From: Shigella phage 2019SD1
Strand: one strand, 5' to 3'
DNA length: 53,145 bases
Sequence record: MT360681
The notes beneath the pieces are model-generated. The model saw only the letters and a program-made list of their open reading frames with translations, searched no databases and was not told the origin of the DNA. A program made the position numbers and the translations under genes. Positions 2,119-44,774 of this stretch are shown here, piece after piece (within the stretch, counting starts at the first letter, position 1; each line of letters begins with the position of its first letter).

Positions 2119-3384
2119 ATGGCATTCCGGCGCAGATTGCAGAAGCTGTTAAGAAGGCAAAGACTGACGCAGAAGAACATGCCAAGCTGGTTGCAGATGC
2201 AACAGAAATTGGCATCAAGTGTGACGGCTAGCGTCGGGTTAAGGCGCATTTTGATGGACGCTAAAGCGATCAAGGTTACTTACGTCAAAGAAGTCACTGG
2301 CGCTGATATTTCAGAAAAAGCCGATGCATATATTGAAACAGCTTTTGACCTTGCGAAGCAGTCTGATAAAATGGCGGCGCAGCGTAAATCTGTTAAGGGC
2401 GATTCTTTCGAATCTGGCAAGAGTGAAAAACCGACTCCCTTGATCCGACTGCTCGTTATAATGGTTTTAGTGGATCGCCCAATTGTGGCGCGAATTGGTT
2501 TGCAGGAGTACCGCACACCGTATGGAATCAGACGAGAGTTCCGACCAGCCTCAGAGGTGTTTAAGGCTGATTCGCTTGCTACGTTCGCAGGCAAGCCGAT
2601 CACTATTGGTCACGTCACTGTGACGCCAGATAATGCGGATCAAGTTGTCGTTGGTTCATGCGCTGGCGCTGGTGTTCCAAATGGGATTGGCGTTGAAGTT
2701 CCGTTAAGCATTTACTCAAAGCGAGCAATTGAGAGCGCAAAAAGAAAGACACGGCGGAAATTTCAGTTGGTTACACATCGGTTGATATTGACAAGCGGCT
2801 GGGGTAATAATAAAACTGGTGATTACTTGTTTGAGGAAGACCTCAAGGAAGACTGGAAGCCTGATTCTCCTGATTGGGTTAAATTTGACGCCATTCAGAC
2901 GAATATCCGCGTTAATCACATTGCGCTTGTCTTTCGTGGTCGTGCTGGCATTGCCAAATTAAATCTTGATAGCGAACAGGATTTTCCGTATAGTGACGAG
3001 GTTCCAAATGACAAAGGAGATGAGGAAATGACAGTAAAAATCAAACTTGATGGCGCGGTAGAATTTGATGTTCCAAAGGCCGTTGCTGATCATATTGAGG
3101 CGTTAAAGGCAGATGCAAAAGCTGCAACCGAAAAGCTGATGGCCTTGAGGCCGAGCGCGACGCCCGACGCTAAAGCGATCAAGGTTACTTACGTCAAAGA
3201 AGTCACTGGCGCTGATATTTCAGAAAAAGCCGATGCATATATTGAAACAGCTTTTGACCTTGCGAAGCAGTCTGATAAAATGGCGGCGCAGCGTAAATCT
3301 GTTAAGGGCGATTCTTTCGAATCTGGCAAGAGTGAAAAACCGACTCCCTTGATCCGACTGCTCGTTCTATGGGCAATAAGCTAA
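2119..3384 (+). CDS. Head scaffold / prohead protease-like protein; contains displaced ~200-bp duplicate (2262-2460 = 3170-3368)
   Basis: Position between MuF-like gene and capsid genes; charged coiled-coil-like C-terminus; N-terminal 50 aa of this frame look out of frame relative to a better-reading alternative frame. Confidence 0.3.
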   Translation: MAFRRRLQKLLRRQRLTQKNMPSWLQMQQKLASSVTASVGLRRILMDAKAIKVTYVKEVTGADISEKADAYIETAFDLAKQSDKMAAQRKSVKGDSFESGKSEKPTPLIRLLVIMVLVDRPIVARIGLQEYRTPYGIRREFRPASEVFKADSLATFAGKPITIGHVTVTPDNADQVVVGSCAGAGVPNGIGVEVPLSIYSKRAIESAKRKTRRKFQLVTHRLILTSGWGNNKTGDYLFEEDLKEDWKPDSPDWVKFDAIQTNIRVNHIALVFRGRAGIAKLNLDSEQDFPYSDEVPNDKGDEEMTVKIKLDGAVEFDVPKAVADHIEALKADAKAATEKLMALRPSATPDAKAIKVTYVKEVTGADISEKADAYIETAFDLAKQSDKMAAQRKSVKGDSFESGKSEKPTPLIRLLVLWAIS

Positions 3385-4725: not shown

Positions 4726-4743
4726 GTTTAACAAAAATGCTAT
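4726..4743 (-). promoter_or_regulatory. Conserved promoter-like motif copy (variant), leftward orientation
   Basis: GTTTAACAAAAATGCTAT. Confidence 0.35.
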
Positions 4744-15150: not shown

Positions 15151-18100
15151 GTGGCTGAAAATATGATAACGGGCAGTAAGGGTGGATCATCAAAACCTTA
15201 TGTTCCGAAAGAGATGGAAGATAACCTGATCTCAATCAACAAAATCAAAATCCTTCTTGCCGTTTCCGATGGCGAGTGCGATCCAAATTTTACACTTCGC
15301 GATCTGTATCTTGATGATGTTCCGGTAATTGCAGACGACGGAACTGTTAACTACCGTGGTGTGAAAGCTGAATTTCGACACGGAACACAAACGCAAGATT
15401 ACATCCGGGGTTTACTGACACATCAAGCGAAGACGCTGGCGCGTGACATTACGACGACAAATCCTTATGTAATTTCTGTAACCAACAAAACATTATCGGC
15501 TATCAGAATAAAAATTCTAATGCCAACAGGCATTAAGCAAGAGGATAACGGCGATCTTGTAGGTGTTAAGGTCACTTATGCTGTTGATATGGCTGTTGAC
15601 GGAGACTCTTACAAAGAAGTATTGATAGACACCATCGAAGGTAAAACGCGTTCCGGTTACGACAGAAGTCGAAGGATTGACCTTCCGGCATTTAATGATC
15701 GCGTATTGCTTAGGGTTAGAAGGGTTACGGCAGACAGCACATCATCTCGCGTTACTGATCTGATTAAGCTACAAAGTTACGCTGAGGTTATTGATGCAAA
15801 ATTCCGTTACCCTCTGACTGGTCTTGTATACGTTGAATTTGACAGTGAGTTGTTCCTAACCAGATCCACGCTGGCGCGTGACATTACGACGACAAATCCT
15901 TATGTAATTTCTGTAACCAACAAAACATTATCGGCTATCAGAATAAAAATTCTAATGCCAACAGGCATTAAGCAAGAGGATAACGGCGATCTTGTAGGTG
16001 TTAAGGTCACTTATGCTGTTGATATGGCTGTTGACGGAGACTCTTACAAAGAAGTATTGATAGACACCATCGAAGGTAAAACGCGTTCCGGTTACGACAG
16101 AAGTCGAAGGATTGACCTTCCGGCATTTAATGATCGCGTATTGCTTAGGGTTAGAAGGGTTACGGCAGACAGCACATCATCTCGCGTTACTGATCTGATT
16201 AAGCTACAAAGTTACGCTGAGGTTATTGATGCAAAATTCCGTTACCCTCTGACTGGTCTTGTATACGTTGAATTTGACAGTGAGTTGTTCCTAACCAGAT
16301 CCCGAGAGTATCACGGTTCATGGGATGGTACTTTCAAGAAAGCGTGGTCGAACAATCCGGCGTGGGTTCTTTATGACATTATCACAAACCAGCGATACGG
16401 ATTAGATCAGCGAGAACTTGGCGTGCAGGTTGACAAATGGAGTCTTTACGAAGCGGCGCAATACTGCGATCAGAAAGTGCCTGACGGAAAAGGCGGCACA
16501 GAGCCGCGTTATCTATGCGACGTTGTTATTCAAAGCCAGATTGAGGCTTATCAGCTTATTCGTGATATTTGCTCAATCTTCCGAGGCATGAGCTTTTGGA
16601 ATGGGGAGAGCCTGTCAATCGTCATTGATAAGCCGCGCGATCCGTCGTACATCTTCACCAATGACAACGTTGTTGATGGCGATTTTCAGTACACAACAGC
16701 AAGCGAAAAGAGCATGTACACGCAGTGCAACGTGACGTTCGACGACGAACAAAACATGTATCAACAGGACGTGGAGGGCGTATTCGACACTGAGGCAGCA
16801 TTGCGCTTTGGATACAATCCAACAAGCATAACAGCTATCGGATGTACACGCAGGAGTGAGGCTAATCGGCGCGGTAGATGGATACTAAAACCAACTTGCG
16901 CAGCACTACGGGATACTAAAACCAACTTGCGCAGCACTACGGTAAACTTTGCTACTGGACTGGAAGGCATGATCCCATCAATAGGTGATGTTATCGCGGT
17001 GTCAGATAACTTTTACAGCAGCAACCTGAAATTAAACCTTTCAGGGCGCGTGATGGAAGTTTCCGGCTTGCAGGTGTTCGTCCCGTTTAAGATTGACGCG
17101 CGACCGGTGATTTCATTATCATCAACAAGCCTGACGGAAAGCCAGTTAAGCGCACAATCTCAAAGGGTTGTGTCGTGGGATAAAGTACCTTACGCATCGC
17201 TGTATGAAATGCAATGGCGAAAAGGTGATGGCAACTGGCTGAATACACCACAGACCGCAAACAAAGAAATTGAGGTTGAAGGTATTTATTCAGGCAACTA
17301 CCGGCCAAACACTTCATTGTCGGATGCGGTTAAGTTAACTGGCGCGCCGGGCTCCCCACCTTACCAGTCAGCGAAGCTGTCACAATTCTTGACCGGGCGA
17401 TGTAGAACCGGAAGCGGAAACAGATCTCACCCTTACCGGCCAAACACTTCATTGTCGGATGCGGTTAAGTTAACTGGCGCGCCGGGCTCCCCACCTTACC
17501 AGTCAGCGAAGCTGTCACAATTCTTGACCGGGCGATGTAGAACCGGAAGCGGAAACAGATCTCACCCTTACCGGTTTGGCATTCGTGTTAAGTGGGGTAT
17601 GCCAGAAGGGAGCGGAGACACGGCATACATTGAGCTTCACCAGTCGCCAGATGGAACAGCGGAAAACTCAAGCCTGTTAACGCTGATACCATACCCACAA
17701 TATGAATATTGGCACGGTACGCTTCCGGCTGGTCATGTTGTATGGTATCGAATCAGAAGCGTGGACAGGATCGGCAATGTTTCCGGTTGGACGGATTTTG
17801 TTCGCGGCATGGCTTCAGATGATGTTGAGGCTGTTTTAGGCAATATTCTTGATAAGATTTTTGATACAGAAGCAGGAAAGGATCTGAAAGAGAATGCCAT
17901 TGATAGCGCAAACAAAATCAAGGATCAGGCGCAAAGCATCATTCAAAACGCATTGGCGAATGATGCAGACGTTAGGATCATGAGGAAGGAAAACGGAAAA
18001 CGCAAAGCCGAGTTTAGGCAATCAATCCAATTGATCGCAAGTGAAACTGAGGCGCGCGTTACCGCAATGACGCAACTCAAGGCTGAATTTGACGAGGAAA

Positions 18101-18771
18101 TAACCAGCGAAGTAACAAGGCTTGATCAGGCAATTGCAACAGAATCGGAAACGCGAGCAACAGCCATTGAGGAATTGAAATCACAGATTGGTGATGATAT
18201 TCAGGGGCAATTAACGCGGGTTGAGGAAGCGATTGCAAGCGAAACAGAGGCGCGCGTTTCTGCTGATACAGCATTAACAGCGAAGTTTGGAGATGTTGAA
18301 TCAGCGCTGACAGAAAAACTTGATTCATGGGCTGGCGTTAATGGAGTTGGCGCACAGTACGCAATGAAACTTGGATTGACATACAACGGGCAGAAGTACA
18401 GCGCCGGAATGGTCATGCAGTTATCAAACAGCGCTCAAGGGTTGATTTCACAAATACTTTTGATGCTGGAAGATTTGCGATCAGTCGAAAATAACCAAGT
18501 TTTCATCAATAGCTTGTTAGTTAAGGATGGTTCAATAAACAATGCGAAGATTGGAAACTTTATTCAGTCAAATAATTGGGATGGTAACAATGGTTGGCAC
18601 ATAAATAAAAATGGCGATGCGTATCTAATGAATGCAACAGTTAGAGGTTCACTTTACGCATCAAACGGAAATTTTTCTTTTAATGGTACTAACAATACAG
18701 TTGTTATAAATAACAATGGTATAACTGTAAACCTTCCTAATGGCGGTCGCGTTGTTGTTGGTGTTTGGTAA
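15151..18771 (+). CDS. Tail tip / host specificity protein J (central tail fibre); tandem 435-bp duplication (15433-15867, 15868-16302), 135-bp tandem duplication (17301-17435, 17436-17570), 30-bp tandem repeat near 16890
   Basis: Clear similarity by eye to lambda gpJ, e.g. ..WDGTFKKAWSNNPAWVLYDIITNQRYGL..VDKWSLYEAAQYCDQKVPDGKGGTEPRY.. Confidence 0.85.
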   Translation: MAENMITGSKGGSSKPYVPKEMEDNLISINKIKILLAVSDGECDPNFTLRDLYLDDVPVIADDGTVNYRGVKAEFRHGTQTQDYIRGLLTHQAKTLARDITTTNPYVISVTNKTLSAIRIKILMPTGIKQEDNGDLVGVKVTYAVDMAVDGDSYKEVLIDTIEGKTRSGYDRSRRIDLPAFNDRVLLRVRRVTADSTSSRVTDLIKLQSYAEVIDAKFRYPLTGLVYVEFDSELFLTRSTLARDITTTNPYVISVTNKTLSAIRIKILMPTGIKQEDNGDLVGVKVTYAVDMAVDGDSYKEVLIDTIEGKTRSGYDRSRRIDLPAFNDRVLLRVRRVTADSTSSRVTDLIKLQSYAEVIDAKFRYPLTGLVYVEFDSELFLTRSREYHGSWDGTFKKAWSNNPAWVLYDIITNQRYGLDQRELGVQVDKWSLYEAAQYCDQKVPDGKGGTEPRYLCDVVIQSQIEAYQLIRDICSIFRGMSFWNGESLSIVIDKPRDPSYIFTNDNVVDGDFQYTTASEKSMYTQCNVTFDDEQNMYQQDVEGVFDTEAALRFGYNPTSITAIGCTRRSEANRRGRWILKPTCAALRDTKTNLRSTTVNFATGLEGMIPSIGDVIAVSDNFYSSNLKLNLSGRVMEVSGLQVFVPFKIDARPVISLSSTSLTESQLSAQSQRVVSWDKVPYASLYEMQWRKGDGNWLNTPQTANKEIEVEGIYSGNYRPNTSLSDAVKLTGAPGSPPYQSAKLSQFLTGRCRTGSGNRSHPYRPNTSLSDAVKLTGAPGSPPYQSAKLSQFLTGRCRTGSGNRSHPYRFGIRVKWGMPEGSGDTAYIELHQSPDGTAENSSLLTLIPYPQYEYWHGTLPAGHVVWYRIRSVDRIGNVSGWTDFVRGMASDDVEAVLGNILDKIFDTEAGKDLKENAIDSANKIKDQAQSIIQNALANDADVRIMRKENGKRKAEFRQSIQLIASETEARVTAMTQLKAEFDEEITSEVTRLDQAIATESETRATAIEELKSQIGDDIQGQLTRVEEAIASETEARVSADTALTAKFGDVESALTEKLDSWAGVNGVGAQYAMKLGLTYNGQKYSAGMVMQLSNSAQGLISQILLMLEDLRSVENNQVFINSLLVKDGSINNAKIGNFIQSNNWDGNNGWHINKNGDAYLMNATVRGSLYASNGNFSFNGTNNTVVINNNGITVNLPNGGRVVVGVW

Positions 18772-18775
18772 TGCA

Positions 18776-18797
18776 AAGGGGCTTTTGCCCCTTTTTA
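18776..18797 (+). terminator. Rho-independent terminator after J
   Basis: GGGGC-TTTT-GCCCC followed by TTTTT. Confidence 0.6.
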
Positions 18798-18880
18798 ATA
18801 CATATTTGGAGTGAATGGTATAGGCATTGAAATATTTATATTAAATGGAAATTGAGCGCCACTCTGAGTAGAATAGTTAC

Positions 18881-19291
18881 CTACCCTTGTTCCCGGGCAC
18901 TTCTTACGTTGCCACCACTCATGCATACGCCCTTGTATCGAATGTTATTATATCCACCCGTAACTCTACATATCGTACCTGTTCTCAGTATTGGGAAAAA
19001 TCCACCGCACCACTGCCAACCATCATTTATCGCCATAATCCCACCAAGAACAAAAGGACGTCTAACGCTTGAGAAAACTATCTGACCAGCAGGATTGCTC
19101 ATAGTGATTCCCGGCTCTGGGATGTAATCCATGTCGTCTATGTAGATAGCCTGAGATGGAAGGCAAAAGCGGTAGATCCCGGACAATGGGATAACCCAAA
19201 CGTAACTCTGGAATCTGACGGCAACACTATATGGTGCAGAGATGCAAACTATAACGGCATTGATGACGTTGGCGCGAGCGTATACGTGCAA
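18881..19291 (-). CDS. Hypothetical protein (frame uncertain)
   Basis: 136-aa minus-strand ORF in region between J and lipoprotein gene; overlapping ORFs in other frames. Confidence 0.2.
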   Translation of the reverse strand: MHVYARANVINAVIVCISAPYSVAVRFQSYVWVIPLSGIYRFCLPSQAIYIDDMDYIPEPGITMSNPAGQIVFSSVRRPFVLGGIMAINDGWQWCGGFFPILRTGTICRVTGGYNNIRYKGVCMSGGNVRSAREQG

Positions 19292-19563
19292 CTCGTAATA
19301 TTTAATAACACTCCACCACCTCCGTATTATTTAACCAGCTTCCAGAAGGTTAATGATTCAACTGGACGGATAACGGTAGGTAATTTTAACGGGCACGGTG
19401 GAAGGAGGATGAGATTTTATGGCAACTGTTACGAGATACTACCCGCTCAGGCTGGAAATCAGGGGATACTTGTTAACGATTCAACCAACTTTGCAGCGAT
19501 ACCGAATAACGCAAGGTTGATGAGCGCTGCATTTGTTGGAGGCATCCGTGTTAACGGTCAGGC

Positions 19564-19828
19564 TCAGTTGCCAGTCCGGTGTTCCTTTCGGAATGTGGGA
19601 TTACCACTCTTTGGTTTTGATTGATACCTTGCCGCTAAAGTTGCCCGGTCGTCATCGGATGAAAGACCTTTGAATCGCATATCGATTTCTCCAGCCGGAA
19701 CCTTCTTACCATCAACGAATAGCATCATACAAGATCCGTAAGTGTAAGTAACACAGTCGCCATTTTAAGATTCTGAGCACAACCAGTCATGGCAATGGCT
19801 GCAATCAAAACGGGGATTAACTTTTTCA
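19564..19828 (-). CDS. Small lipoprotein, candidate superinfection-exclusion protein (Cor/Llp-like); one internal frame change
   Basis: TAAGGAGA RBS, ATG at 19828 (minus), N-terminus MKKLIPVLIAAIAMTGC with lipobox; promoter motif copy 19886-19904 upstream; located next to tail tip gene. Confidence 0.45.
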
Positions 19829-19885
19829 TGTTGGTGTCTCCTTAGTTGTTGTTAGTTGTAACTATACATGATCTTACGGTAGGCG

Positions 19886-19904
19886 TTTAGCAAAAGTGCT
19901 ATTC
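19886..19904 (-). promoter_or_regulatory. Conserved promoter-like motif copy upstream of lipoprotein gene
   Basis: Minus-strand reading AATAGCACTTTTGCTAAAC followed ~20 nt later by TATAGT and RBS. Confidence 0.5.
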
Positions 19905-19929: not shown

Positions 19930-20130
19930 AAATCTGCGGAGGCTTAAATTTAGCTCAAAAAGTGAACAGCAATAGAGCGCTATACATACATATAAATATA
20001 TATACATACATATAAATCAATAAGTTAGTAGTATATATATTTATATTTGTTTTTCTTGTTATCTATGTTTTGTGTGATTTTATGTGTCTGGTAATTTTTA
20101 TGTGGTTGTGTATTCGAGGCTAAAGATTAC
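19930..20130. promoter_or_regulatory. AT-rich repetitive intergenic region at strand switch (candidate promoter cluster or origin-like region)
   Basis: Repeats ATACATACATATAAATA and TTATGTG/GTGGTTGTGT units; no ORF. Confidence 0.3.
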
Positions 20131-20135
20131 GATGC

Positions 20136-21314
20136 GTGTCAGTGTTTGTGTTAACTAGCCAAACGGCGCTTGCTGCAAAACTGAACTCATTTGGCCTGAA
20201 AGGTACAACCGGAAAGACTTATCCAGATCTTATCAAAATGATGGTTGATTGCGGAGAAGACCTTAACGTTATGTGGTTGATTGAGATGATCGCAGAAAGT
20301 CAAGCGGGGCCGATGGGGTTAAGTTCTATATATCTATATCCGGCGCAAATAGAGGAACAAGAGAACAAAAAGACAACACTGATATTTATCAATCACTTAC
20401 ACGTAAGTTTTGTTATCCAAGTTGGTGAGAACGTTGTTGGAACAGAAAAACAAAATAACTATAATAAGTTTATGGCGTACACCAGCGAAGAAATGAGCAA
20501 CGAGCTTTATCACGATCCAGAAGCGTGGACGGCTGATTATGTTAGCGGCTCAAGCCCGGCAGAGATTTACAGCACATGCCCGGCAGCGTGGAAGTTCAAG
20601 CCGCGCGACGATAAGAGCAAAGCGCTAGTTTTCGGTACGCAGTCGCATACCAACTTTGAAAGCAAGGAGCTTTTCGAAAAACCTATCGACGTGCGCCAGC
20701 GACAGAAGACTTTAAGGATCCGTGGCAATGCGCCGGTTCTTGAATCCATACCTGAACATAACGCATGTATGAATAGCAAGACAGCACAACGTGAATTATC
20801 GCTATTCGGTGAAATTAACGGCGTAAAAGTCAAAGTTCGATGCGATCACGTTGACGTAACAAAGAACGTCAACGCAACGCTGATTGATGGTTACGATGAA
20901 AAAGGCCAGCCGATTTGCAGAGATATTATTTATCCAGAGGCCATTGTGATCACAGACTACAAAACCACAATGAGCGCTAATCCGGCTGAGTTTATGCGCC
21001 CGGCTTACAATCACGGCTATTATTTAAAAATGGCGTTGCAATGTGATTTATTCAGGAAAGCATATCCAGAAGAAAAGCGACCTATAGTTGTGCGCCTGTT
21101 AGCGCAAGAGAAGAAAGAGCCTTATTTGCCGTTGGCTTTCCGCATGAACAACGAGCAATTGAAGATCGGGCGCATTCAGTACATGAGCGTGATTAACCAG
21201 TTTGCCATGTGCCAGCAACATGACGTTTGGCCTTCTTATTCAAACGGTGAGCCGGAGGTTTGCCTTGACACTCCTGATTGGGTGCGCCGCCAGTTTAAGC
21301 AATATCTTATTTAA
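20136..21314 (+). CDS. PD-(D/E)xK family nuclease, putative recombination exonuclease (start uncertain, possibly near 20460)
   Basis: Motifs ..VRCDHVDV.. and ..IVITDYKTT.. suggest a PD-(D/E)xK catalytic core; adjacent to Erf-like and SSB genes. Confidence 0.3.
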   Translation: MSVFVLTSQTALAAKLNSFGLKGTTGKTYPDLIKMMVDCGEDLNVMWLIEMIAESQAGPMGLSSIYLYPAQIEEQENKKTTLIFINHLHVSFVIQVGENVVGTEKQNNYNKFMAYTSEEMSNELYHDPEAWTADYVSGSSPAEIYSTCPAAWKFKPRDDKSKALVFGTQSHTNFESKELFEKPIDVRQRQKTLRIRGNAPVLESIPEHNACMNSKTAQRELSLFGEINGVKVKVRCDHVDVTKNVNATLIDGYDEKGQPICRDIIYPEAIVITDYKTTMSANPAEFMRPAYNHGYYLKMALQCDLFRKAYPEEKRPIVVRLLAQEKKEPYLPLAFRMNNEQLKIGRIQYMSVINQFAMCQQHDVWPSYSNGEPEVCLDTPDWVRRQFKQYLI

Positions 21315-23221: not shown

Positions 23222-23843
23222 GAGTTGATTGCTGTTCTGGCATTACAGGCCATGGGCTAATTGATTCCCTTTCTGCTACTGGCTTTTCAGGTTCAATTCC
23301 TAAAAACTTTCCTACAAACTCACCAACAAAATTTGAGCTATCGCTTACATAAACATGCATCCTGTCCAGATCTGCAACAGTAACGCTATTTGGTGCAATC
23401 ATGATCCTCTGCTGGTGAAAACCGATATACATCACATTGGCTGGACGTTCAAGAGTCCCCATATTTGGCGCAATTACGCCCATTATCCAACAATAATGAA
23501 TATTGCCATCAAGAGGCTCACATCCGGCGTTAAGCCAGTTTACTTTCTGGTGTGGGAATGCCATTGATGAATCAGTAGCGTCACGCCGTAACGACCATTT
23601 AACGCCGCCAATCTCAATAATTTGTTTAGGCCTCATTCCGTTGAATTGAGTCACGCCAGCGCCATTTTGATTAATGTTTTGCATTACTACTCGCGGCAAA
23701 TGCACGCTCGGTAACAGGTAACGCAACGCGAGATCTGATTCGCCAACAGTTTGCTGATTCTCAGGCTGTTTTGATTTGCGATATGAAAGCTCAGTTGCAG
23801 GAAGCGCGTTTTGCTCTTTCTCAGGCAAACCAGACCGCTGCAC
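23193..23843 (-). CDS. Hypothetical protein (216 aa)
   Basis: Minus-strand ORF; upstream end runs into perfect palindrome. Confidence 0.3.
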   Translation of the reverse strand: MQRSGLPEKEQNALPATELSYRKSKQPENQQTVGESDLALRYLLPSVHLPRVVMQNINQNGAGVTQFNGMRPKQIIEIGGVKWSLRRDATDSSMAFPHQKVNWLNAGCEPLDGNIHYCWIMGVIAPNMGTLERPANVMYIGFHQQRIMIAPNSVTVADLDRMHVYVSDSSNFVGEFVGKFLGIEPEKPVAERESISPWPVMPEQQSTHEGKENDEK

Positions 23844-24003
23844 TGAATTGCAAAATCAACCGTGTCGAGCAATTGGTAAACTTCAAGTTGCCTACTCCTC
23901 AGACTCCGCCTACTGGCTGTTGCGCAACAGCCAGTAGGCGGAGTCTGAGGAGTAGGCAACTTGAAGTTTACCAATTGCTCGACACGGTTGATTTTGCAAT
24001 TCA
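23844..24003. repeat. Perfect 160-bp palindrome (two 80-bp inverted arms, centre at 23923/23924)
   Basis: Right arm is exact reverse complement of left arm. Confidence 0.85.
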
Positions 24004-24399
24004 ATATAAAACATTTGTCAGCGATATGTAAGCAACTGGCATAAAGACGAAAAAGCGCAGCCTGAGCCGCGCTTGAGTTAAAAGATTGCATCCTCTCAGA
24101 TATGATTGGAGTTGATGAAAACGGCGAGGAGTACGTTGATCATCAAATTGAAACGGATCGCACAGATGACACTCTGGCGCTCGATAGCAACGTTATGCTA
24201 ACTGATATGGCTTGCGCTATGGTTTACATGGGAGGGATGATCGAAAACCAGAAAAAGGAGATAGACGAATTAAAGGCGGCTGTTGCTGCACTGCTCAATA
24301 AAACTTTACTCCCTACTGGTGGTGGTTTTGGTGGCGAAGCTGGCGCGGCTGGTCTTGGCGGCGCTGTTGGCGGCCTGATTGGGTCATGGTTTGGTAACG

Positions 24400-24870
24400 G
24401 CTTTAATGGTCGTGGTGGTTATGGTGGTGATGGTGCGGCTGTTGCTGTCGGTGCTAACGCTGTTCTTGATGGTATTAATAACATCCAGACAGGTGTAAAC
24501 AACCCGGTCTGCAAACTCTGCAAGGCCAAAACTCCACAAACCTTGCCGTTGAGCGCTCCGCCGCATCAACCTTTAACGGCATTACCAGCCAGAATACGCA
24601 AAACCTGCTTGCATCGGTGCAAGGCTTCGCCGGACCATAACAGGAGACCGGTACAAGTTTCACATATTGGGAATCGACATTCATCATATCTTGAGCAATC
24701 AGGCCGTAACGCTGAATGTCATCTCGCTTATACTTAAACATTGTCGGAAGCCATTGCATGACGCGATCATAACTTTCTTTTCCATCCGTATAAACGATGT
24801 CTTTTTCAGATCTCTGTCAGACGTTGGATTTTTGCAAAATCGTAGTTTCCTGTTCCAAACTGGCCATTAC
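24400..24870 (-). CDS. Fragment resembling the C-terminal intramolecular chaperone (peptidase S74-like) domain of tail fibres/spikes
   Basis: Minus-strand translation ..SEKDIVYTDGKESYDRVMQWLPTMFKYKRDDIQRYGLIAQDMMNVDSQYVKLVPV..; no clear start; downstream frame breaks. Confidence 0.35.
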
Positions 24871-25337: not shown

Positions 25338-27494
25338 GTGATTGGTGATAACGCTCATAACAGGATGTTTTATTTTCTCATACCGGGACGTCGGGTTGGT
25401 CCTTTTGATAGTGTTGGTGCTAATACGATTATTTACTCGCCAGACGGATCTTATAGGTTGGTTATCAGAGATGACGGATTACTAGTTTATCAGAAAGGTG
25501 ACGGAACTGAAACCAAGCCATTTGAAATTGCGACTGGTGGGACTGGGGCAACTGATGCAGCAGGTGCTCGCAATAATCTTGGGCTTGGCAGCTATACACC
25601 ACTCATTCGCCCCGGTGCAACAATCTTTTTCATTGATGCACCGTTTCAAGCGGCTGTGATTGGTGATAACGCTCATAACAGGATGTTTTATTTTCTCATA
25701 CCGGGACGTCGGGTTGGTCCTTTTGATAGTGTTGGTGCTAATACGATTATTTACTCGCCAGACGGATCTTATAGGTTGGTTATCAGAGATGACGGATTAC
25801 TAGTTTATCAGAAAGGTGACGGAACTGAAACCAAGCCATTTGAAATTGCGACTGGTGGGACTGGGGCAACTGATGCAGCAGGTGCTCGCAATAATCTTGG
25901 GCTTGGGACTGGGCAAGACGTTCAATTTAAGAGCATTACGGCTACAGACGGCGATATTCTAGTTCCGCAAACTCACGTTGTAGGATGTAAAACTAATACT
26001 GGCGGTAACAAAAATATCTATCTGACGAACTTACCGGAGAATCAACTTCAGGTGGGTGGGACTGGCGCTCAATCTGCAAATAACGCCGCTGAAACTGCAA
26101 AAACGGCGCTGTTACGGCGCGAAATGAGGCTGAGGAATTTGCTAAAAGCCTTAATGCTGAAAATCTACCATGTATTGCTGGGCGACGCTCAAGGTTATAT
26201 CACTGGATACGATACGAAATGGCGAGAGCAATTAACACTCATTCGCCCCGGTGCAACAATCTTTTTCATTGATGCACCGTTTCAAGCGGCTGTGATCAGT
26301 GAAGTTATCAGCGATACACAAATCCGCGCTATCACAACTGGCGGCGCTGAAATTGGGCGGAGCAACTACATTATTTTGCTGCATGACTCAATCACTGTTG
26401 ATGGCCCGGCGCAAGATGTTGCGGAAACTCTGCGTTACTATCAAAGCAAAGAAACTCAGATCGAGGAAGCTATTGAATTTTTCAAAAACTTTGATCTAAA
26501 ACAGTTGCAAGATCTGGCTAATCAGGTTAAAGGTGATGCAGAGAAAACAGCCAATGATCGTGCTGCTACTGAACAACTGAAAAACGACACTCAACATATA
26601 AAGGATTCTGCTGTTGCTGAAACAAACCAGATTAAAGCAGACACTAACGCAATCAAGGCGCAAACACAACAGATTAAAGATTCTGCGATAACGGAAGTTA
26701 ATTCCGCACGCGATCAAGGTGTTTTAGCTGTAAACCAGACTAAAGATCAGGCTGTTTCAGAAATGAATCAGATAAAGGGTGATGTTTCGAATCTGAAAAC
26801 GAAGCTATTTCAGCAAGGGATTCAGCCCAGCAATACATGGCAATGGACGCTCAAGGTTATATCACTGGATACGATACGAAATGGCGAGAGCAATATCAGT
26901 GAAGTTATCAGCGATACACAAATCCGCGCTATCACAACTGGCGGCGCTGAAATTGGGCGGAGCAACTACATTATTTTGCTGCATGACTCAATCACTGTTG
27001 ATGGCCCGGCGCAAGATGTTGCGGAAACTCTGCGTTACTATCAAAGCAAAGAAACTCAGATCGAGGAAGCTATTGAATTTTTCAAAAACTTTGATCTAAA
27101 ACAGTTGCAAGATCTGGCTAATCAGGTTAAAGGTGATGCAGAGAAAACAGCCAATGATCGTGCTGCTACTGAACAACTGAAAAACGACACTCAACATATA
27201 AAGGATTCTGCTGTTGCTGAAACAAACCAGATTAAAGCAGACACTAACGCAATCAAGGCGCAAACACAACAGATTAAAGATTCTGCGATAACGGAAGTTA
27301 ATTCCGCACGCGATCAAGGTGTTTTAGCTGTAAACCAGACTAAAGATCAGGCTGTTTCAGAAATGAATCAGATAAAGGGTGATGTTTCGAATCTGAAAAC
27401 GAAGCTATTTCAGCAAGGGATTCAGCCCAGCAATACACATGCGTTTTCTCCCGTGTTGCATGTTAATGTCAATGCAGATAATAGCATTTGCTAA
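25338..27494 (+). CDS. Long tail fibre protein; 318-bp tandem duplication (25271-25588, 25589-25906), 600-bp tandem duplication (26297-26838 and 26897-27438) and frame disruption near 26100
   Basis: N-terminal ..GGTGATDAAGARNNLGLG.. motif common to phage tail fibres; long coiled-coil-like repeats rich in A/T/N/Q/K. Confidence 0.6.
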   Translation: MIGDNAHNRMFYFLIPGRRVGPFDSVGANTIIYSPDGSYRLVIRDDGLLVYQKGDGTETKPFEIATGGTGATDAAGARNNLGLGSYTPLIRPGATIFFIDAPFQAAVIGDNAHNRMFYFLIPGRRVGPFDSVGANTIIYSPDGSYRLVIRDDGLLVYQKGDGTETKPFEIATGGTGATDAAGARNNLGLGTGQDVQFKSITATDGDILVPQTHVVGCKTNTGGNKNIYLTNLPENQLQVGGTGAQSANNAAETAKTALLRREMRLRNLLKALMLKIYHVLLGDAQGYITGYDTKWREQLTLIRPGATIFFIDAPFQAAVISEVISDTQIRAITTGGAEIGRSNYIILLHDSITVDGPAQDVAETLRYYQSKETQIEEAIEFFKNFDLKQLQDLANQVKGDAEKTANDRAATEQLKNDTQHIKDSAVAETNQIKADTNAIKAQTQQIKDSAITEVNSARDQGVLAVNQTKDQAVSEMNQIKGDVSNLKTKLFQQGIQPSNTWQWTLKVISLDTIRNGESNISEVISDTQIRAITTGGAEIGRSNYIILLHDSITVDGPAQDVAETLRYYQSKETQIEEAIEFFKNFDLKQLQDLANQVKGDAEKTANDRAATEQLKNDTQHIKDSAVAETNQIKADTNAIKAQTQQIKDSAITEVNSARDQGVLAVNQTKDQAVSEMNQIKGDVSNLKTKLFQQGIQPSNTHAFSPVLHVNVNADNSIC

Positions 27495-27495
27495 G

Positions 27496-27516
27496 TCAAA
27501 AAACCCGCAATGCGGG
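27496..27516 (-). terminator. Hairpin with T-run on minus strand
   Basis: CCCGC-AAT-GCGGG preceded by AAAAAA on plus strand. Confidence 0.35.
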
Positions 27517-27535
27517 GCGAAAGTAGCAGTGACAT

Positions 27536-28470
27536 GATCCAACCAACTCCGGTATCATTACCGCACACGTTGCAGATCGCACCGCCATCGCCTTTTTATC
27601 GCCAAGTTTATCCGTCCATCTGAAGCGATCCTTTCCGCCGCAGTGGGGCTTTTCATTGATGAAGAAGGTAAACAGTCTTTTCTAGCAAAGGACTACACGC
27701 GCGGGTCGGTTGTGAGAACAGGAAACACCGATAAGACTATCTATCTTTGCGTTGACTGGATTGATGCGCAACATATTCACCTTGCAACTGGTCAAGAGGT
27801 TTGGGCCTGCTTCGATGCAACTAATATTGAGATTGTAGCTTACAGGTATAAAGGCAACAGAAGAATGCGAGTTGTCTGTAAGAGTACAGACCGTGACGCT
27901 ATCATAGCTGCCGAGGAAAGAGGTCTTGAAATTATGATGCCGATTAATGATAATTACAGGCAAGGGATAGACAGGAAGGTTTACAAACCTGAATCTCTTC
28001 TCAAGCTAACCGGAGAACCTTACAGCGAAGTGATCAATATTTTGGGCCGTTTTCTTGGGAAAGTTCCACAGGACTATAGAATCAAGGCAAATAAGCGAGT
28101 ATCTCGTGATTCTGGTTATTCGTTTGGGAAACAGGCAAGTCATGAATGCTGCGAGCGCGTTATGTCAAAAACATTAAAATTTGATCGCACGCCGTTAAGC
28201 ACATATGAAGGAATATACCCGCCTGAAGATGGTTATTATGAATGCGGCGTAAAAGATGGTCGATACATTCACGCGTTACCATGTTACCGGTGCATTCAGA
28301 TGAAATTGATGATGAAATGTGCAATGTGCTTTTCATTGATGAAGAAGGTAAACAGTCTTTTCCCCCACTGCGGCGGAAAGGATCGCTTCAGATGGACGGA
28401 TAAACTTGGCGATAAAAAGGCGATGGCGGTGCGATCTGCAACGTGTGCGGTAATGATACCGGAGTTGGTT
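27536..28470. repeat. Segment bounded by ~115-bp perfect inverted repeats (27536-27650 and 28354-28470) plus 34-bp direct repeats (27648-27682, 28320-28353)
   Basis: Exact reverse-complement identity of the two outer arms. Confidence 0.8.
27643..28319 (+). CDS. Hypothetical protein encoded inside the inverted-repeat-flanked segment
   Basis: Open frame across the internal segment; GTG start; no recognisable motifs. Confidence 0.25.
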
Positions 28471-28622
28471 GGATCACAAGATTGATGCTTGCCGTTAAAA
28501 ACTTCATTTGGAAGACCGCAAATACTTTGTAGCGCCTCACGCCACAATCCTTGCATATATGGGAGTACATCTTCCTTTTGATAAACCATAAAGTTTTCGT
28601 TATTCATATACACCTCAAACAA
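28354..28622 (-). CDS. Hypothetical protein, N-terminal part only (frame ends inside inverted repeat)
   Basis: Minus-strand start at 28622; protein-like N-terminus MFEVYMNNENFMVYQKEDVLPYMQGLWREALQ.. Confidence 0.25.
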
Positions 28623-28645
28623 AAAGCCTGACAGATGATAACATC

Positions 28646-29158
28646 ATGCCGGGCATTGTTTTTCTTATTGAGTATTACGGCAGCGTGTCAGCAATGTCAA
28701 GCCGTGCTTTTAGTCCAGCGCGAAAGAACAGCGAATCGCGGTATCAACTGGCAAGATTGACAAACGCACAATCAATGGCAATAACGGAACTCGACGGGGT
28801 AAAGATAAGAAAAGCGCAAGCGCCCTACAGGATACTATGTTTTAAAAGAGCAAAGCGTCTTAACGTTAGCCAGCAAACTGTAAATCAGTGGCGTGTTCGC
28901 GGTATGATTTCAGCCGCTGGCGCTCAAAAGGTGCATAACGATTACAAGAAATATGGTTGTCAAGGCTATCGCGCGTCATTCTGCCGTCCAGACCTGCGAT
29001 TTGATTCCAATGGAAAACCGCTCACAAAGAGATGTGATAAGCGTGAAATGTTGCGAGTAGTAAGAATGTCAGATTATGAACCCGGCGGATTCCTGTATAA
29101 ACCTGAAAGCACTAATTGCCATTATTCATTCTCCAATAGCATTTTTGTTAAACAATGA
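28646..29158 (+). CDS. Hypothetical DNA-binding protein (HTH-like)
   Basis: Segment ..RLNVSQQTVNQWRVRGMIS.. resembles a helix-turn-helix. Confidence 0.3.
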   Translation: MPGIVFLIEYYGSVSAMSSRAFSPARKNSESRYQLARLTNAQSMAITELDGVKIRKAQAPYRILCFKRAKRLNVSQQTVNQWRVRGMISAAGAQKVHNDYKKYGCQGYRASFCRPDLRFDSNGKPLTKRCDKREMLRVVRMSDYEPGGFLYKPESTNCHYSFSNSIFVKQ

Positions 29159-33806: not shown

Positions 33807-34997
33807 ATGAGATGGACAATCACCACTCGCGACAAAGAACAGCTAGAAGCATTAATGCAGGCCGCTATGGATGCATTTAGCGAAGAAGTTCCGCGACTTG
33901 ATCCGCAACCGGAATCACAAAAGGATTATAGCGAGACGTTATCACTGTATCCGATCTTTGATATGCACCGGGCGCAATGGCGCATAAGCATGAATGCGGC
34001 GAGAACTGGGATACAGCAACAGCAGAGCGCGAATAATTTCATTGATTATTCCATCCAGTGCGCGCCGGATAGCGAAAAGGCTGTTTTGCTGATTGGTGGT
34101 GACATGCTGCATAGTGACGGCACGGAAGCGGTGACACCTGCAAGCGGTCACGTATTGGATCAAGATAGTCGATACGCAAAACTTGTTTATGTTGCCATCC
34201 GGTCAGTGCGTCGAGCAATAGCAAAGCTGTTATCAAAACATAAAACGAGATGGACAATCACCACTCGCGACAAAGAACAGCTAGAAGCATTAATGCAGGC
34301 CGCTATGGATGCATTTAGCGAAGAAGTTCCGCGACTTGATCCGCAACCGGAATCACAAAAGGATTATAGCGAGACGTTATCACTGTATCCGATCTTTGAT
34401 ATGCACCGGGCGCAATGGCGCATAAGCATGAATGCGGCGAGAACTGGGATACAGCAACAGCAGAGCGCGAATAATTTCATTGATTATTCCATCCAGTGCG
34501 CGCCGGATAGCGAAAAGGCTGTTTTGCTGATTGGTGGTGACATGCTGCATAGTGACGGCACGGAAGCGGTGACACCTGCAAGCGGTCACGTATTGGATCA
34601 AGATAGTCGATACGCAAAACTTGTTTATGTTGCCATCCGGTCAGTGCGTCGAGCAATAGCAAAGCTGTTATCAAAACATAAAACGATCTGGTTGCGCGCA
34701 GCAATGGCGGCAGCATATGAGAATGAGCCGCGAGTGCATGTTGATGTTTCTCCGCGAGTAGTTCATCACACGCAATATGGCAAAACATTCCCGCATACCA
34801 TCATCTGGTTGCGCGCAGCAATGGCGGCAGCATATGAGAATGAGCCGCGAGTGCATGTTGATGTTTCTCCGCGAGTAGTTCATCACACGCAATATGGCAA
34901 AACATTCCCGCATACCATCATGGGCACACTATCCGCAAACCTGAAACATTGGCGGCAAAGATGCATACGCTGCGCGCGAGTACATAGCACTATATAA
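33807..34997 (+). CDS. Hypothetical protein; exact tandem 438-bp duplication (33810-34247, 34248-34685) and 117-bp tandem duplication (34686-34802, 34803-34919)
   Basis: 396-aa ORF composed largely of repeated units. Confidence 0.3.
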   Translation: MRWTITTRDKEQLEALMQAAMDAFSEEVPRLDPQPESQKDYSETLSLYPIFDMHRAQWRISMNAARTGIQQQQSANNFIDYSIQCAPDSEKAVLLIGGDMLHSDGTEAVTPASGHVLDQDSRYAKLVYVAIRSVRRAIAKLLSKHKTRWTITTRDKEQLEALMQAAMDAFSEEVPRLDPQPESQKDYSETLSLYPIFDMHRAQWRISMNAARTGIQQQQSANNFIDYSIQCAPDSEKAVLLIGGDMLHSDGTEAVTPASGHVLDQDSRYAKLVYVAIRSVRRAIAKLLSKHKTIWLRAAMAAAYENEPRVHVDVSPRVVHHTQYGKTFPHTIIWLRAAMAAAYENEPRVHVDVSPRVVHHTQYGKTFPHTIMGTLSANLKHWRQRCIRCARVHSTI

Positions 34998-39978: not shown

Positions 39979-40000
39979 TTTTAACAAAAGTGCTATTTTG
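39979..40000 (-). promoter_or_regulatory. Conserved promoter-like motif copy inside 102-bp displaced duplicate (39225-39326 = 39911-40012)
   Basis: Identical to copy at 39293-39314. Confidence 0.4.
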
Positions 40001-43631: not shown

Positions 43632-44774
43632 TTGTGGTGCTTAAGCGTGGATAACATCAAGTATCCGATCACGTTCCACACGGTTGGTAACTCAACTATT
43701 CGATTCACATCTCGCGACAATGGCGTTTATAGCGACGGTCAGAAATCAGAGTTGAAAGTTGATTTCTTTGTCAATGGTCACAACAAATTCAATCCGCACA
43801 ACGAAAAAGATAAGGTGTACTACGTGGAAGATATTACAAAACACTTGTTTGGCGAAACTCCATTCGGCGGCGGGAAGACGTCAATTCAACAAATCATTGA
43901 CGATCAGATCCGCAAGGCAGCCGTTGAAATGAAAGCGCCCGGAGGCTGGCGTATTGATAAGGGCGCCTTTACCATTCAAGAAATCGTAACGCAGGGCGCG
44001 ATTGAAGACATGCCGCTTGGCGCTTCAATCATCGGCATCAAAGACGACAACGGCGACTGGCAGGATGTTTCATTCCTGTTAAGCAGATCGAAGTACACGA
44101 CGACCTGTTTTGCCTCCCGGCGCATCATGGCAGCTACAAGGGCAAAGCCTTTGCCGCAGAGCTTGACATCAAGCGCGGAACGATTGTTAAGTGGAAGGCA
44201 AAAGTGTAAAGATAACATCAAGTATCCGATCACGTTCCACACGGTTGGTAACTCAACTATTCGATTCACATCTCGCGACAATGGCGTTTATAGCGACGGT
44301 CAGAAATCAGAGTTGAAAGTTGATTTCTTTGTCAATGGTCACAACAAATTCAATCCGCACAACGAAAAAGATAAGGTGTACTACGTGGAAGATATTACAA
44401 AACACTTGTTTGGCGAAACTCCATTCGGCGGCGGGAAGACGTCAATTCAACAAATCATTGACGATCAGATCCGCAAGGCAGCCGTTGAAATGAAAGCGCC
44501 CGGAGGCTGGCGTATTGATAAGGGCGCCTTTACCATTCAAGAAATCGTAACGCAGGGCGCGATTGAAGACATGCCGCTTGGCGCTTCAATCATCGGCATC
44601 AAAGACGACAACGGCGACTGGCAGGATGTTTCATTCCTGTTAAGCAGATCGAAGTACACGACGACCTGTTTTGCCTCCCGGCGCATCATGGCAGCTACAA
44701 GGGCAAAGCCTTTGCCGCAGAGCTTGACATCAAGCGCGGAACGATTGTTAAGTGGAAGGCAAAAGTGTAAATAG
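43632..44774 (+). CDS. Hypothetical early protein; exact tandem ~561-bp duplication (43650-44210, 44211-44771); C-terminus frame-disrupted
   Basis: 380-aa ORF consisting of two identical 187-aa units. Confidence 0.35.
   Translation: MWCLSVDNIKYPITFHTVGNSTIRFTSRDNGVYSDGQKSELKVDFFVNGHNKFNPHNEKDKVYYVEDITKHLFGETPFGGGKTSIQQIIDDQIRKAAVEMKAPGGWRIDKGAFTIQEIVTQGAIEDMPLGASIIGIKDDNGDWQDVSFLLSRSKYTTTCFASRRIMAATRAKPLPQSLTSSAERLLSGRQKCKDNIKYPITFHTVGNSTIRFTSRDNGVYSDGQKSELKVDFFVNGHNKFNPHNEKDKVYYVEDITKHLFGETPFGGGKTSIQQIIDDQIRKAAVEMKAPGGWRIDKGAFTIQEIVTQGAIEDMPLGASIIGIKDDNGDWQDVSFLLSRSKYTTTCFASRRIMAATRAKPLPQSLTSSAERLLSGRQKCK

Follow-up and report, generated by a model that had tools for sequence, protein, structure and literature searches.

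A structurally described relative of the gene product considered here is Rtp45 of phage Rtp, the structure of which (PDB chain 9rps_D) shows it complexed with Shigella flexneri LptDE-LptM (PMC12685063). Rtp45 is the sole solved member of its family, and the mechanistic model used below is taken from its binding to LptDE (PMC12685063). In the same work, the AlphaFold3 models of Rtp45 and of the Rtp45-LptDE complex are reported to be wrong, the related lipoprotein of phage Oekolampad (SEOeko) could not be expressed by the authors, and the binding of the Oekolampad receptor-binding protein (RBP) to LptD was shown by cryo-EM (PMC12685063). In the BASEL study, allelic types of the locus downstream of gpJ were matched to terminal receptors, and resistance to JeanPiccard and AugustePiccard was linked to lptD mutations (PMC8594841). 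Oekolampad was among the small siphoviruses for which no receptor was known and which were put through resistant-mutant sequencing there, and according to the legend of Figure 4, mutations or small deletions were found for seven such phages (PMC8594841). Four unrelated RBP families have since been confirmed, directed against FhuA, BtuB, LptD, and YncD (bioRxiv 10.64898/2026.04.02.716166). The lipoprotein Cor, together with two accessory genes, forms a cassette characteristic of FhuA-targeting phages (PMC13164509).

The window analyzed here is a stretch of 53,145 nucleotides from Shigella phage 2019SD1 (sequence record MT360681), and its phage is T1-like, a member of the Drexlerviridae close to Hanrivervirus. 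The minus-strand gene at 19601..19829 is very likely an exclusion-lipoprotein gene of the Rtp45 / PF24052 family, belonging to the LptD-type host-recognition module of a Hanrivervirus-like T1-like phage, with the frameshifts that interrupt it and the scrambling of its partner RBP gene being errors of the contig. The importance of this reading lies mainly in the correct annotation of the gene and in the receptor prediction that goes with it.

The gene runs from an ATG at 19829 to a TAA stop at 19603-19601. An earlier note on this DNA had placed the start at 19828; the minus-strand ORF and its strong ribosome-binding site are as described there, but the ATG actually lies at 19829. The Shine-Dalgarno sequence AAGGAG (19838..19843, minus strand) is 8 nt before the ATG and is conserved in pSf-1 and ESh4. 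The beginning of the ORF encodes MKKLIPVLIAAIAMTGC. Codons 1-17 (19779..19829, minus strand) make up a signal peptide, recognized both by direct reading of the sequence and with a PS51257-type regular expression. Its n-region carries lysines at positions 2 and 3 and is followed by a hydrophobic core that leads into the lipobox M-T-G-C (19790-19779), in which the codon of the lipidated Cys17 occupies 19781-19779. The VLIAAIAMTGC segment satisfies the PROSITE PS51257-type lipobox rule, and alanine is found at the +2 position after Cys17. The lipoprotein signal peptide proposed in the earlier note is thus borne out.

The reading frame beyond the signal peptide is broken. A single frame change had been claimed, but alignment and three-frame translation place two 1-nt deletions relative to pSf-1 and ESh4, which deprive the window copy of the intact frame of the Rtp45 family. 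The first falls in a run of four A at 19763..19766 (minus strand), where pSf-1 and ESh4 have five. The second, at 19646..19647 (minus strand), leaves CCGGG in place of the CCAGGG of the relatives, with one base missing. As a result, translation of the lipoprotein is split across all three frames (residues 1-22, 23-61, and 63-76). As deposited, the gene is 229 nt long and yields only 34 amino acids, the signal peptide and 17 further residues, before a stop is reached. Adding the two missing bases brings it to 231 nt, or 76 codons, and the repaired 76-residue protein reads MKKLIPVLIAAIAMTGCAQNLKNGDCVTYTYGSCMMLFVDGKKVPAGEIDMRFKGLSSDDDQGNFSGKVSIKTKEW. Position 19564, previously taken as the end of the gene, is merely the stop of an out-of-frame read-through ORF; the segment 19564-19600 lies outside the lipoprotein gene and is part of an inverted RBP-gene fragment.

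Upstream of the gene, the -10-like hexamer TATAGT (19861..19866, minus strand) is read directly and is invariant in pSf-1 and ESh4. It is preceded by a copy of a phage-wide box, TAGCACTTTTGYTAAA, at 19886..19901 on the same strand, as seen when the copies are aligned with their flanks. The gene does therefore have its own copy of the conserved motif along with a TATAGT, as the earlier note had it, the box at 19901-19886 and the hexamer at 19866-19861. With up to one mismatch allowed, the window contains 13 copies of TAGCACTTTTGYTAAA, where shuffled sequence gives an expectation of 0.00. The 16-nt copies, which read TAGCACTTTTGTTAAA(AC), are found at 4727, 19886, 29137, 31924, 32972, 38770, and 39295, and again at 39980, 41471, 42139, 43227, 45765, and 48526. 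Twelve copies were inspected, and most of these have a -10-like hexamer about 20 nt downstream of the box, followed by a gene start. A scan with the sigma-70 consensus calls no canonical promoter at the TATAGT site, since the TTG-like part of the box is 21-22 nt away from the -10-like hexamer, a non-canonical distance for sigma-70. The single call made by the scan falls within the coding region and does not exceed what shuffled sequence gives. The box and TATAGT form a putative promoter, and the 13-copy box is possibly a phage-specific element for early promoters or for the binding of a regulator. No paper containing the box sequence came up in a literature search, and no terminator-like site was found. 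Further upstream, the AT-rich intergenic region between the divergent lipoprotein and exonuclease genes contains the direct repeat TTTATATGTATGTATA twice, 20 nt apart, at 19981-20016.

Once repaired, the protein can be assigned to a family. It matches PF24052 (Phage_lipoprotein) with 80.7 bits, where the cut-off is 27, and its residues 3-76 cover profile positions 6-80 of 80; phrog_4281 is matched with an E-value of 1.6e-34. In the PDB, the sole chain found at E<=1 is 9rps_D, Rtp45 itself (E 4.5e-8). Identity stands at 82-89% of amino acids with the lipoproteins of Shfl1, pSf-2, SH6, pSf-1, ESh4, and other phages, which are annotated as “putative phage lipoprotein,” and at the nucleotide level the gene is 91% identical to the pSf-1 gp84 region. 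It falls to about 62% with the Dhillonvirus lipoproteins, Oekolampad included, and to about 35% with those of JeanPiccard, Rogue1, and phiEco32-like podoviruses. In an alignment of eight sequences, the protein is 38% identical to Rtp45 and 64% identical to the Oekolampad lipoprotein. In all eight, G16, C17, G24, C26, G32, C34, and G41 are invariant, as are P45, G47, D50, R52, G55, E75, and W76. C26 and C34, kept in every sequence, align with the Cys30-Cys38 disulfide of Rtp45. NCBIfam was also searched, and has no model for the lipoprotein family and none for the RBP. No identical intact copy turned up: amino acid identity reaches 91% at best in IMG/VR and 89.5% among the GenBank phage matches listed, a comparison which rests on the best 45 of them, one record of at least 99% identity lying outside these.

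PF24052-type lipoproteins of about 35% identity also occur in phiEco32-like podoviruses (phiEco32, Bas90, Bas93, and other Kuravirus-like phages). In phiEco32 (NC_010324), the lipoprotein gene is at 2977-3258, right after a tRNA-Arg and among small, mostly hypothetical genes, not beside an RBP gene. Phages of this group may also manipulate LptD.

The earlier note had proposed a Cor- or Llp-like protein. It is easy to see how an FhuA-inactivating lipoprotein of the Cor or Llp family could be suspected here: most Hanriverviruses have a Cor-annotated gene at the orthologous position, slyngel shares 93% of nucleotides over the promoter region and signal peptide, and there is a weak match to phrog_1119 (Cor; E 5.7e-4). 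But that match is limited to residues 1-32, just as BLASTP against slyngel Cor is limited to residues 1-26, and similarity to Cor ends at the lipobox cysteine. The slyngel protein found at the same position, on the other hand, matches phrog_1119 fully (7.6e-28) and also the NCBIfam Cor model NF047972 (69.2 bits, with the cut-off at 31), on which the window protein gives no match. Neither of the accessory genes that go with Cor (phrog_557 and phrog_425; gp29 and gp30 in slyngel) is present, and fragments of a DUF6453 RBP gene are there instead. As for Llp, no chain of it is found in the PDB at E<=1, and the neighboring gene is of the DUF6453 type, not pb5. Cor membership was rejected for want of a full-length profile match in the mature domain, and Llp membership for want of both sequence similarity and a pb5-type RBP neighbor. 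An FhuA-inactivating protein of either family is very improbable, and assignment to the Rtp45 family stands.

A small lipoprotein with an outer-membrane-type +2 residue could also act in lysis instead of exclusion, as an o-spanin or u-spanin lipoprotein, and one GenBank record (vB_EcoS_Chapo) does label its ortholog “u-spanin.” A u-spanin needs a C-terminal hydrophobic segment, though, and here the C-terminus, GKVSIKTKEW, is hydrophilic. The gene has the RBP, J, and exonuclease genes for neighbors, with no lysis cassette containing an i-spanin. In all relatives examined, its place is beside J as the partner of the RBP gene, and no holin or endolysin is annotated in the stretches fetched. Moreover, the homolog Rtp45 has been seen bound to LptDE (PMC12685063). 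The spanin candidate was dropped on the hydrophilic C-terminus and the lack of an adjacent i-spanin gene, and a role in lysis seems extremely improbable.

The partner gene speaks for an exclusion protein directed at LptD. In pSf-1, ESh4, UP30, pSf-2, Oekolampad, JeanPiccard, and Rtp, the order is the same, with the lipoprotein gene followed by the RBP gene, and both convergent with J. The intact relatives have an RBP gene of 311-321 codons beginning 0-3 nt after the lipoprotein gene on the same strand, as in the pairs gp84-gp83 of pSf-1, gp20-gp21 of pSf-2, bas18_0026-0025 of Oekolampad, and rtp45-rtp44 of Rtp. The Oekolampad match of the window protein, bas18_0026, is the exclusion lipoprotein of the structural study (PMC12685063). 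At the window locus, the DUF6453 RBP gene is also present, but it is fragmented, partly inverted, and without its 5' end. Remnants homologous to pSf-1 gp83 (DUF6453) were located by blastn and tblastn at 18795..19184 on the minus strand, with a stop at about 18795-18797; they comprise RBP residues 283-318 and approximately 200-285 in two frames, fused to approximately 52-73. Inverted and permuted pieces then occupy 19187..19605 on the plus strand (residues ~155-211, then ~75-168), and residues 1-49, including the start codon, are absent from the window. The J-like tail-tip gene (15151..18771, plus strand), with internal duplications and inversions of its own, ends at 18771. The lipoprotein gene had been described as directly following J, but about 830 nt of scrambled RBP gene come between the two.

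The identity of this RBP carries the receptor prediction. Its ortholog pSf-1 gp83 scores 426 bits on PF20051 (DUF6453) and matches 9rpt_C, the LptD-bound RBP of Oekolampad (9RPT), over its full length with an E-value of 2.4e-66. Since the ortholog matches an LptD-binding RBP, the implied receptor is LptD, not FhuA, and LptD is the predicted terminal receptor of the phage. In consequence, the FhuA-dependent colicin or siderophore-uptake assay put forward to check the exclusion hypothesis would probably be uninformative. Homology supports the functional class, that of a small outer-membrane-type lipoprotein next to an RBP gene and belonging to an exclusion family. Of the proposal that the gene mediates superinfection exclusion from a position beside the receptor-binding genes, the kind of function is upheld by the homology to Rtp45, while the family and the receptor have to be replaced. 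For the pSf-1-type clade as a whole, LptD binding and an exclusion phenotype would be expected by analogy.

Comparison with the backbone indicates where the module begins and ends. When the 24-kb segment 8000-32000 is used as a query, the aligned part is about 95% identical in nucleotides to Salmonella phage slyngel and Escherichia phage JakobBernoulli; the aligned fraction is about 69% of the query, in 32 pieces, and no record among the GenBank phages searched matches better. On the left, homology to slyngel stops at about 18420, within the last ~120 codons of J, and the pSf-1 alignment continues. Between 18421 and 19776, only a 94-nt stretch at 79% identity can be aligned with slyngel. On the right, nucleotide homology to more than 20 Cor-type phages, which covers the upstream region and the signal peptide, ends at about 19777, 2 nt past the Cys17 codon; in these phages the match ends at query positions 477-481. 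Both boundaries with the Cor-type Hanriverviruses are sharp. With the right one so close to the lipobox Cys codon, the promoter, the ribosome-binding site, and the signal peptide are shared between the two module types, and the mature domain is not. On these alignments, the locus is a predicted LptD-type module set on a slyngel-like backbone, as in pSf-1 and ESh4. A less conventional account would have the Hanrivervirus exchange between Cor/FhuA and Rtp45/LptD modules using fixed junctions, with the mature domain swapped behind a shared promoter, ribosome-binding site, and signal peptide, or, alternatively, the damage being genuine and the lineage defective; we consider it rather unlikely. If the junctions are real, unrelated exclusion lipoproteins would constitute a plug-in cassette behind a common export leader. 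The same region is 87-91% identical in nucleotides to unannotated T1-like coliphage genomes deposited as MG065640-MG065687 (“Campylobacter phage A1xx”). As these are labelled Campylobacter jejuni phages, they are probably contaminants or have mislabelled hosts.

The state of the module has to be judged against that of the contig. Over the 21.3 kb aligned with slyngel (window 7043-32242), there are 112 gaps, 94 of which break the frame inside slyngel coding sequences. Single-nucleotide deletions in the window account for 81 of the 112, and 54 of these 81 fall in homopolymer runs of at least 3, with an A/T bias. Such a gap profile is typical of homopolymer-prone sequencing. There are also 31 direct duplications of at least 60 nt (60-561 nt, 97-100% identical), adding up to 6.8 kb, for example at 15433-16302, 43650-44771, 26295-27437, and 33809-34686. 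About half are strictly tandem, and the start-to-start spacing is divisible by 3 in 30 of the 31, which points to an artefact of codon- or protein-aware assembly or generation, not to natural duplication. Small inversions, transpositions, and deletions relative to slyngel are found at 23716-24635, 26184-29119, 17304-17572, and 20149-20720. The genes rearranged in this way include those for the lateral tail fiber, tape measure, primase, helicase, regulator, J, and exonuclease; the 392-aa “exonuclease” ORF at 20136-21314 is itself a rearranged version of a 353-aa gene.

Against this background, a genuine pseudogene, that is, a lineage in which the exclusion gene has decayed and the RBP gene has been rearranged, as in a defective or laboratory-passaged genome, is distinctly unlikely. 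It would fit with the fact that the lesions are not confined to the window but recur in the public contig IMGVR_UViG_2974632794_000001, which has the full extent of the window, and that 23 of the 81 single-base deletions are not in homopolymers, the second one in the lipoprotein gene among them. However, tape measure, J, primase, helicase, and exonuclease are hit alike, at about 4.4 frame-breaking gaps per kb, which is incompatible with a replicating phage. This rate predicts roughly one gap of the kind in a 231-nt gene, and the two seen in the lipoprotein gene are at background level. Outside the indels, conservation is good, with 91% nucleotide identity to pSf-1, and the spacing of nearly all the duplications by multiples of three argues for a computational or assembly process. 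With lesions in essential genes throughout the contig, the genome could not replicate, and the assembly is therefore best regarded as faulty. Most likely, both frameshifts and the scrambled RBP gene reflect mistakes in the deposited contig, not gene decay. Were the contig accurate, the module would be dead, with a 34-aa product and an RBP gene lacking its start codon. The contig being unreliable, re-sequencing should come before any biological reading of the pseudogenes or novel ORFs that it seems to contain.

For the intact protein, a mechanism can be proposed by analogy with Rtp45. The precursor would be exported, lipidated at Cys17, and, with alanine at +2, sorted to the inner leaflet of the outer membrane. 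The mature protein of 60 amino acids (~6 kDa), held by a Cys26-Cys34 disulfide, would then bind LptD of the LptDE translocon from the periplasmic side, with the contact on LptD located near strands 5-8, between LptE and LptM. A hairpin inserted into the barrel lumen would push extracellular loop 4 outward by up to 20 Å. Through this physical displacement, LptD would be locked in a conformation unfit for RBP binding. Neither the RBP of the phage itself nor the RBPs of related LptD-dependent phages would then bind any longer to infected cells or to lysis debris. The benefit would be twofold: superinfecting relatives would be excluded, and progeny would be spared adsorption to debris.

Set beside the named systems, the window gene shares a general plan with all of them. 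Cor of T1, phi80, and N15 is likewise a small lipoprotein encoded beside tail-tip/RBP genes that disables the phage's own receptor, and the Hanrivervirus Cor gene sits in the same slot, with the same promoter and signal peptide as the window gene. It differs by its unrelated mature domain, its receptor (FhuA), and its two accessory genes. Llp of T5 (8A60), a lipoprotein of the outer membrane, faces the periplasm and blocks RBP binding from the inside (PMC9586334; PMC12685063). While Llp acts on FhuA by long-range allostery, Rtp45 physically displaces a loop of LptD (PMC12685063), and Llp and the window protein have no detectable sequence similarity.

Rtp45 (Q333D9; 9RPS chain D) is of the same Pfam family as the window protein. 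Both have 76 amino acids, the lipobox cysteine, the conserved cysteine pair, and the motif VPAGE(I/V)D(M/V)R(F/Y), and Rtp45 has the same partner, a DUF6453 RBP (rtp44), in the same position convergent with J. The two differ in that identity is 38% and that the signal peptide and the C-terminal third are different; Rtp belongs to the Braunvirinae and the window phage to the Tempevirinae, and the window copy is frameshifted twice. Nearer to it is the bas18_0026/bas18_0025 pair of Oekolampad (9RPT), from a different genus, with 62-64% identity between the lipoproteins and an identical two-gene layout. Nearest of all are its orthologs in pSf-1 (gp84, AGI61467), Shfl1, pSf-2 (gp20), SH6, and ESh4, which have the same promoter region and ribosome-binding site. 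In these pSf-1-type copies, an intact 76-codon ORF is followed by an intact 318-codon RBP gene, whereas the window pair is damaged. The gene is thus already known, as a close ortholog of annotated genes whose family has both a published mechanism and a solved structure, and its proper label is that of an LptD-directed exclusion lipoprotein of the Rtp45 family (PF24052) rather than of Cor or Llp.
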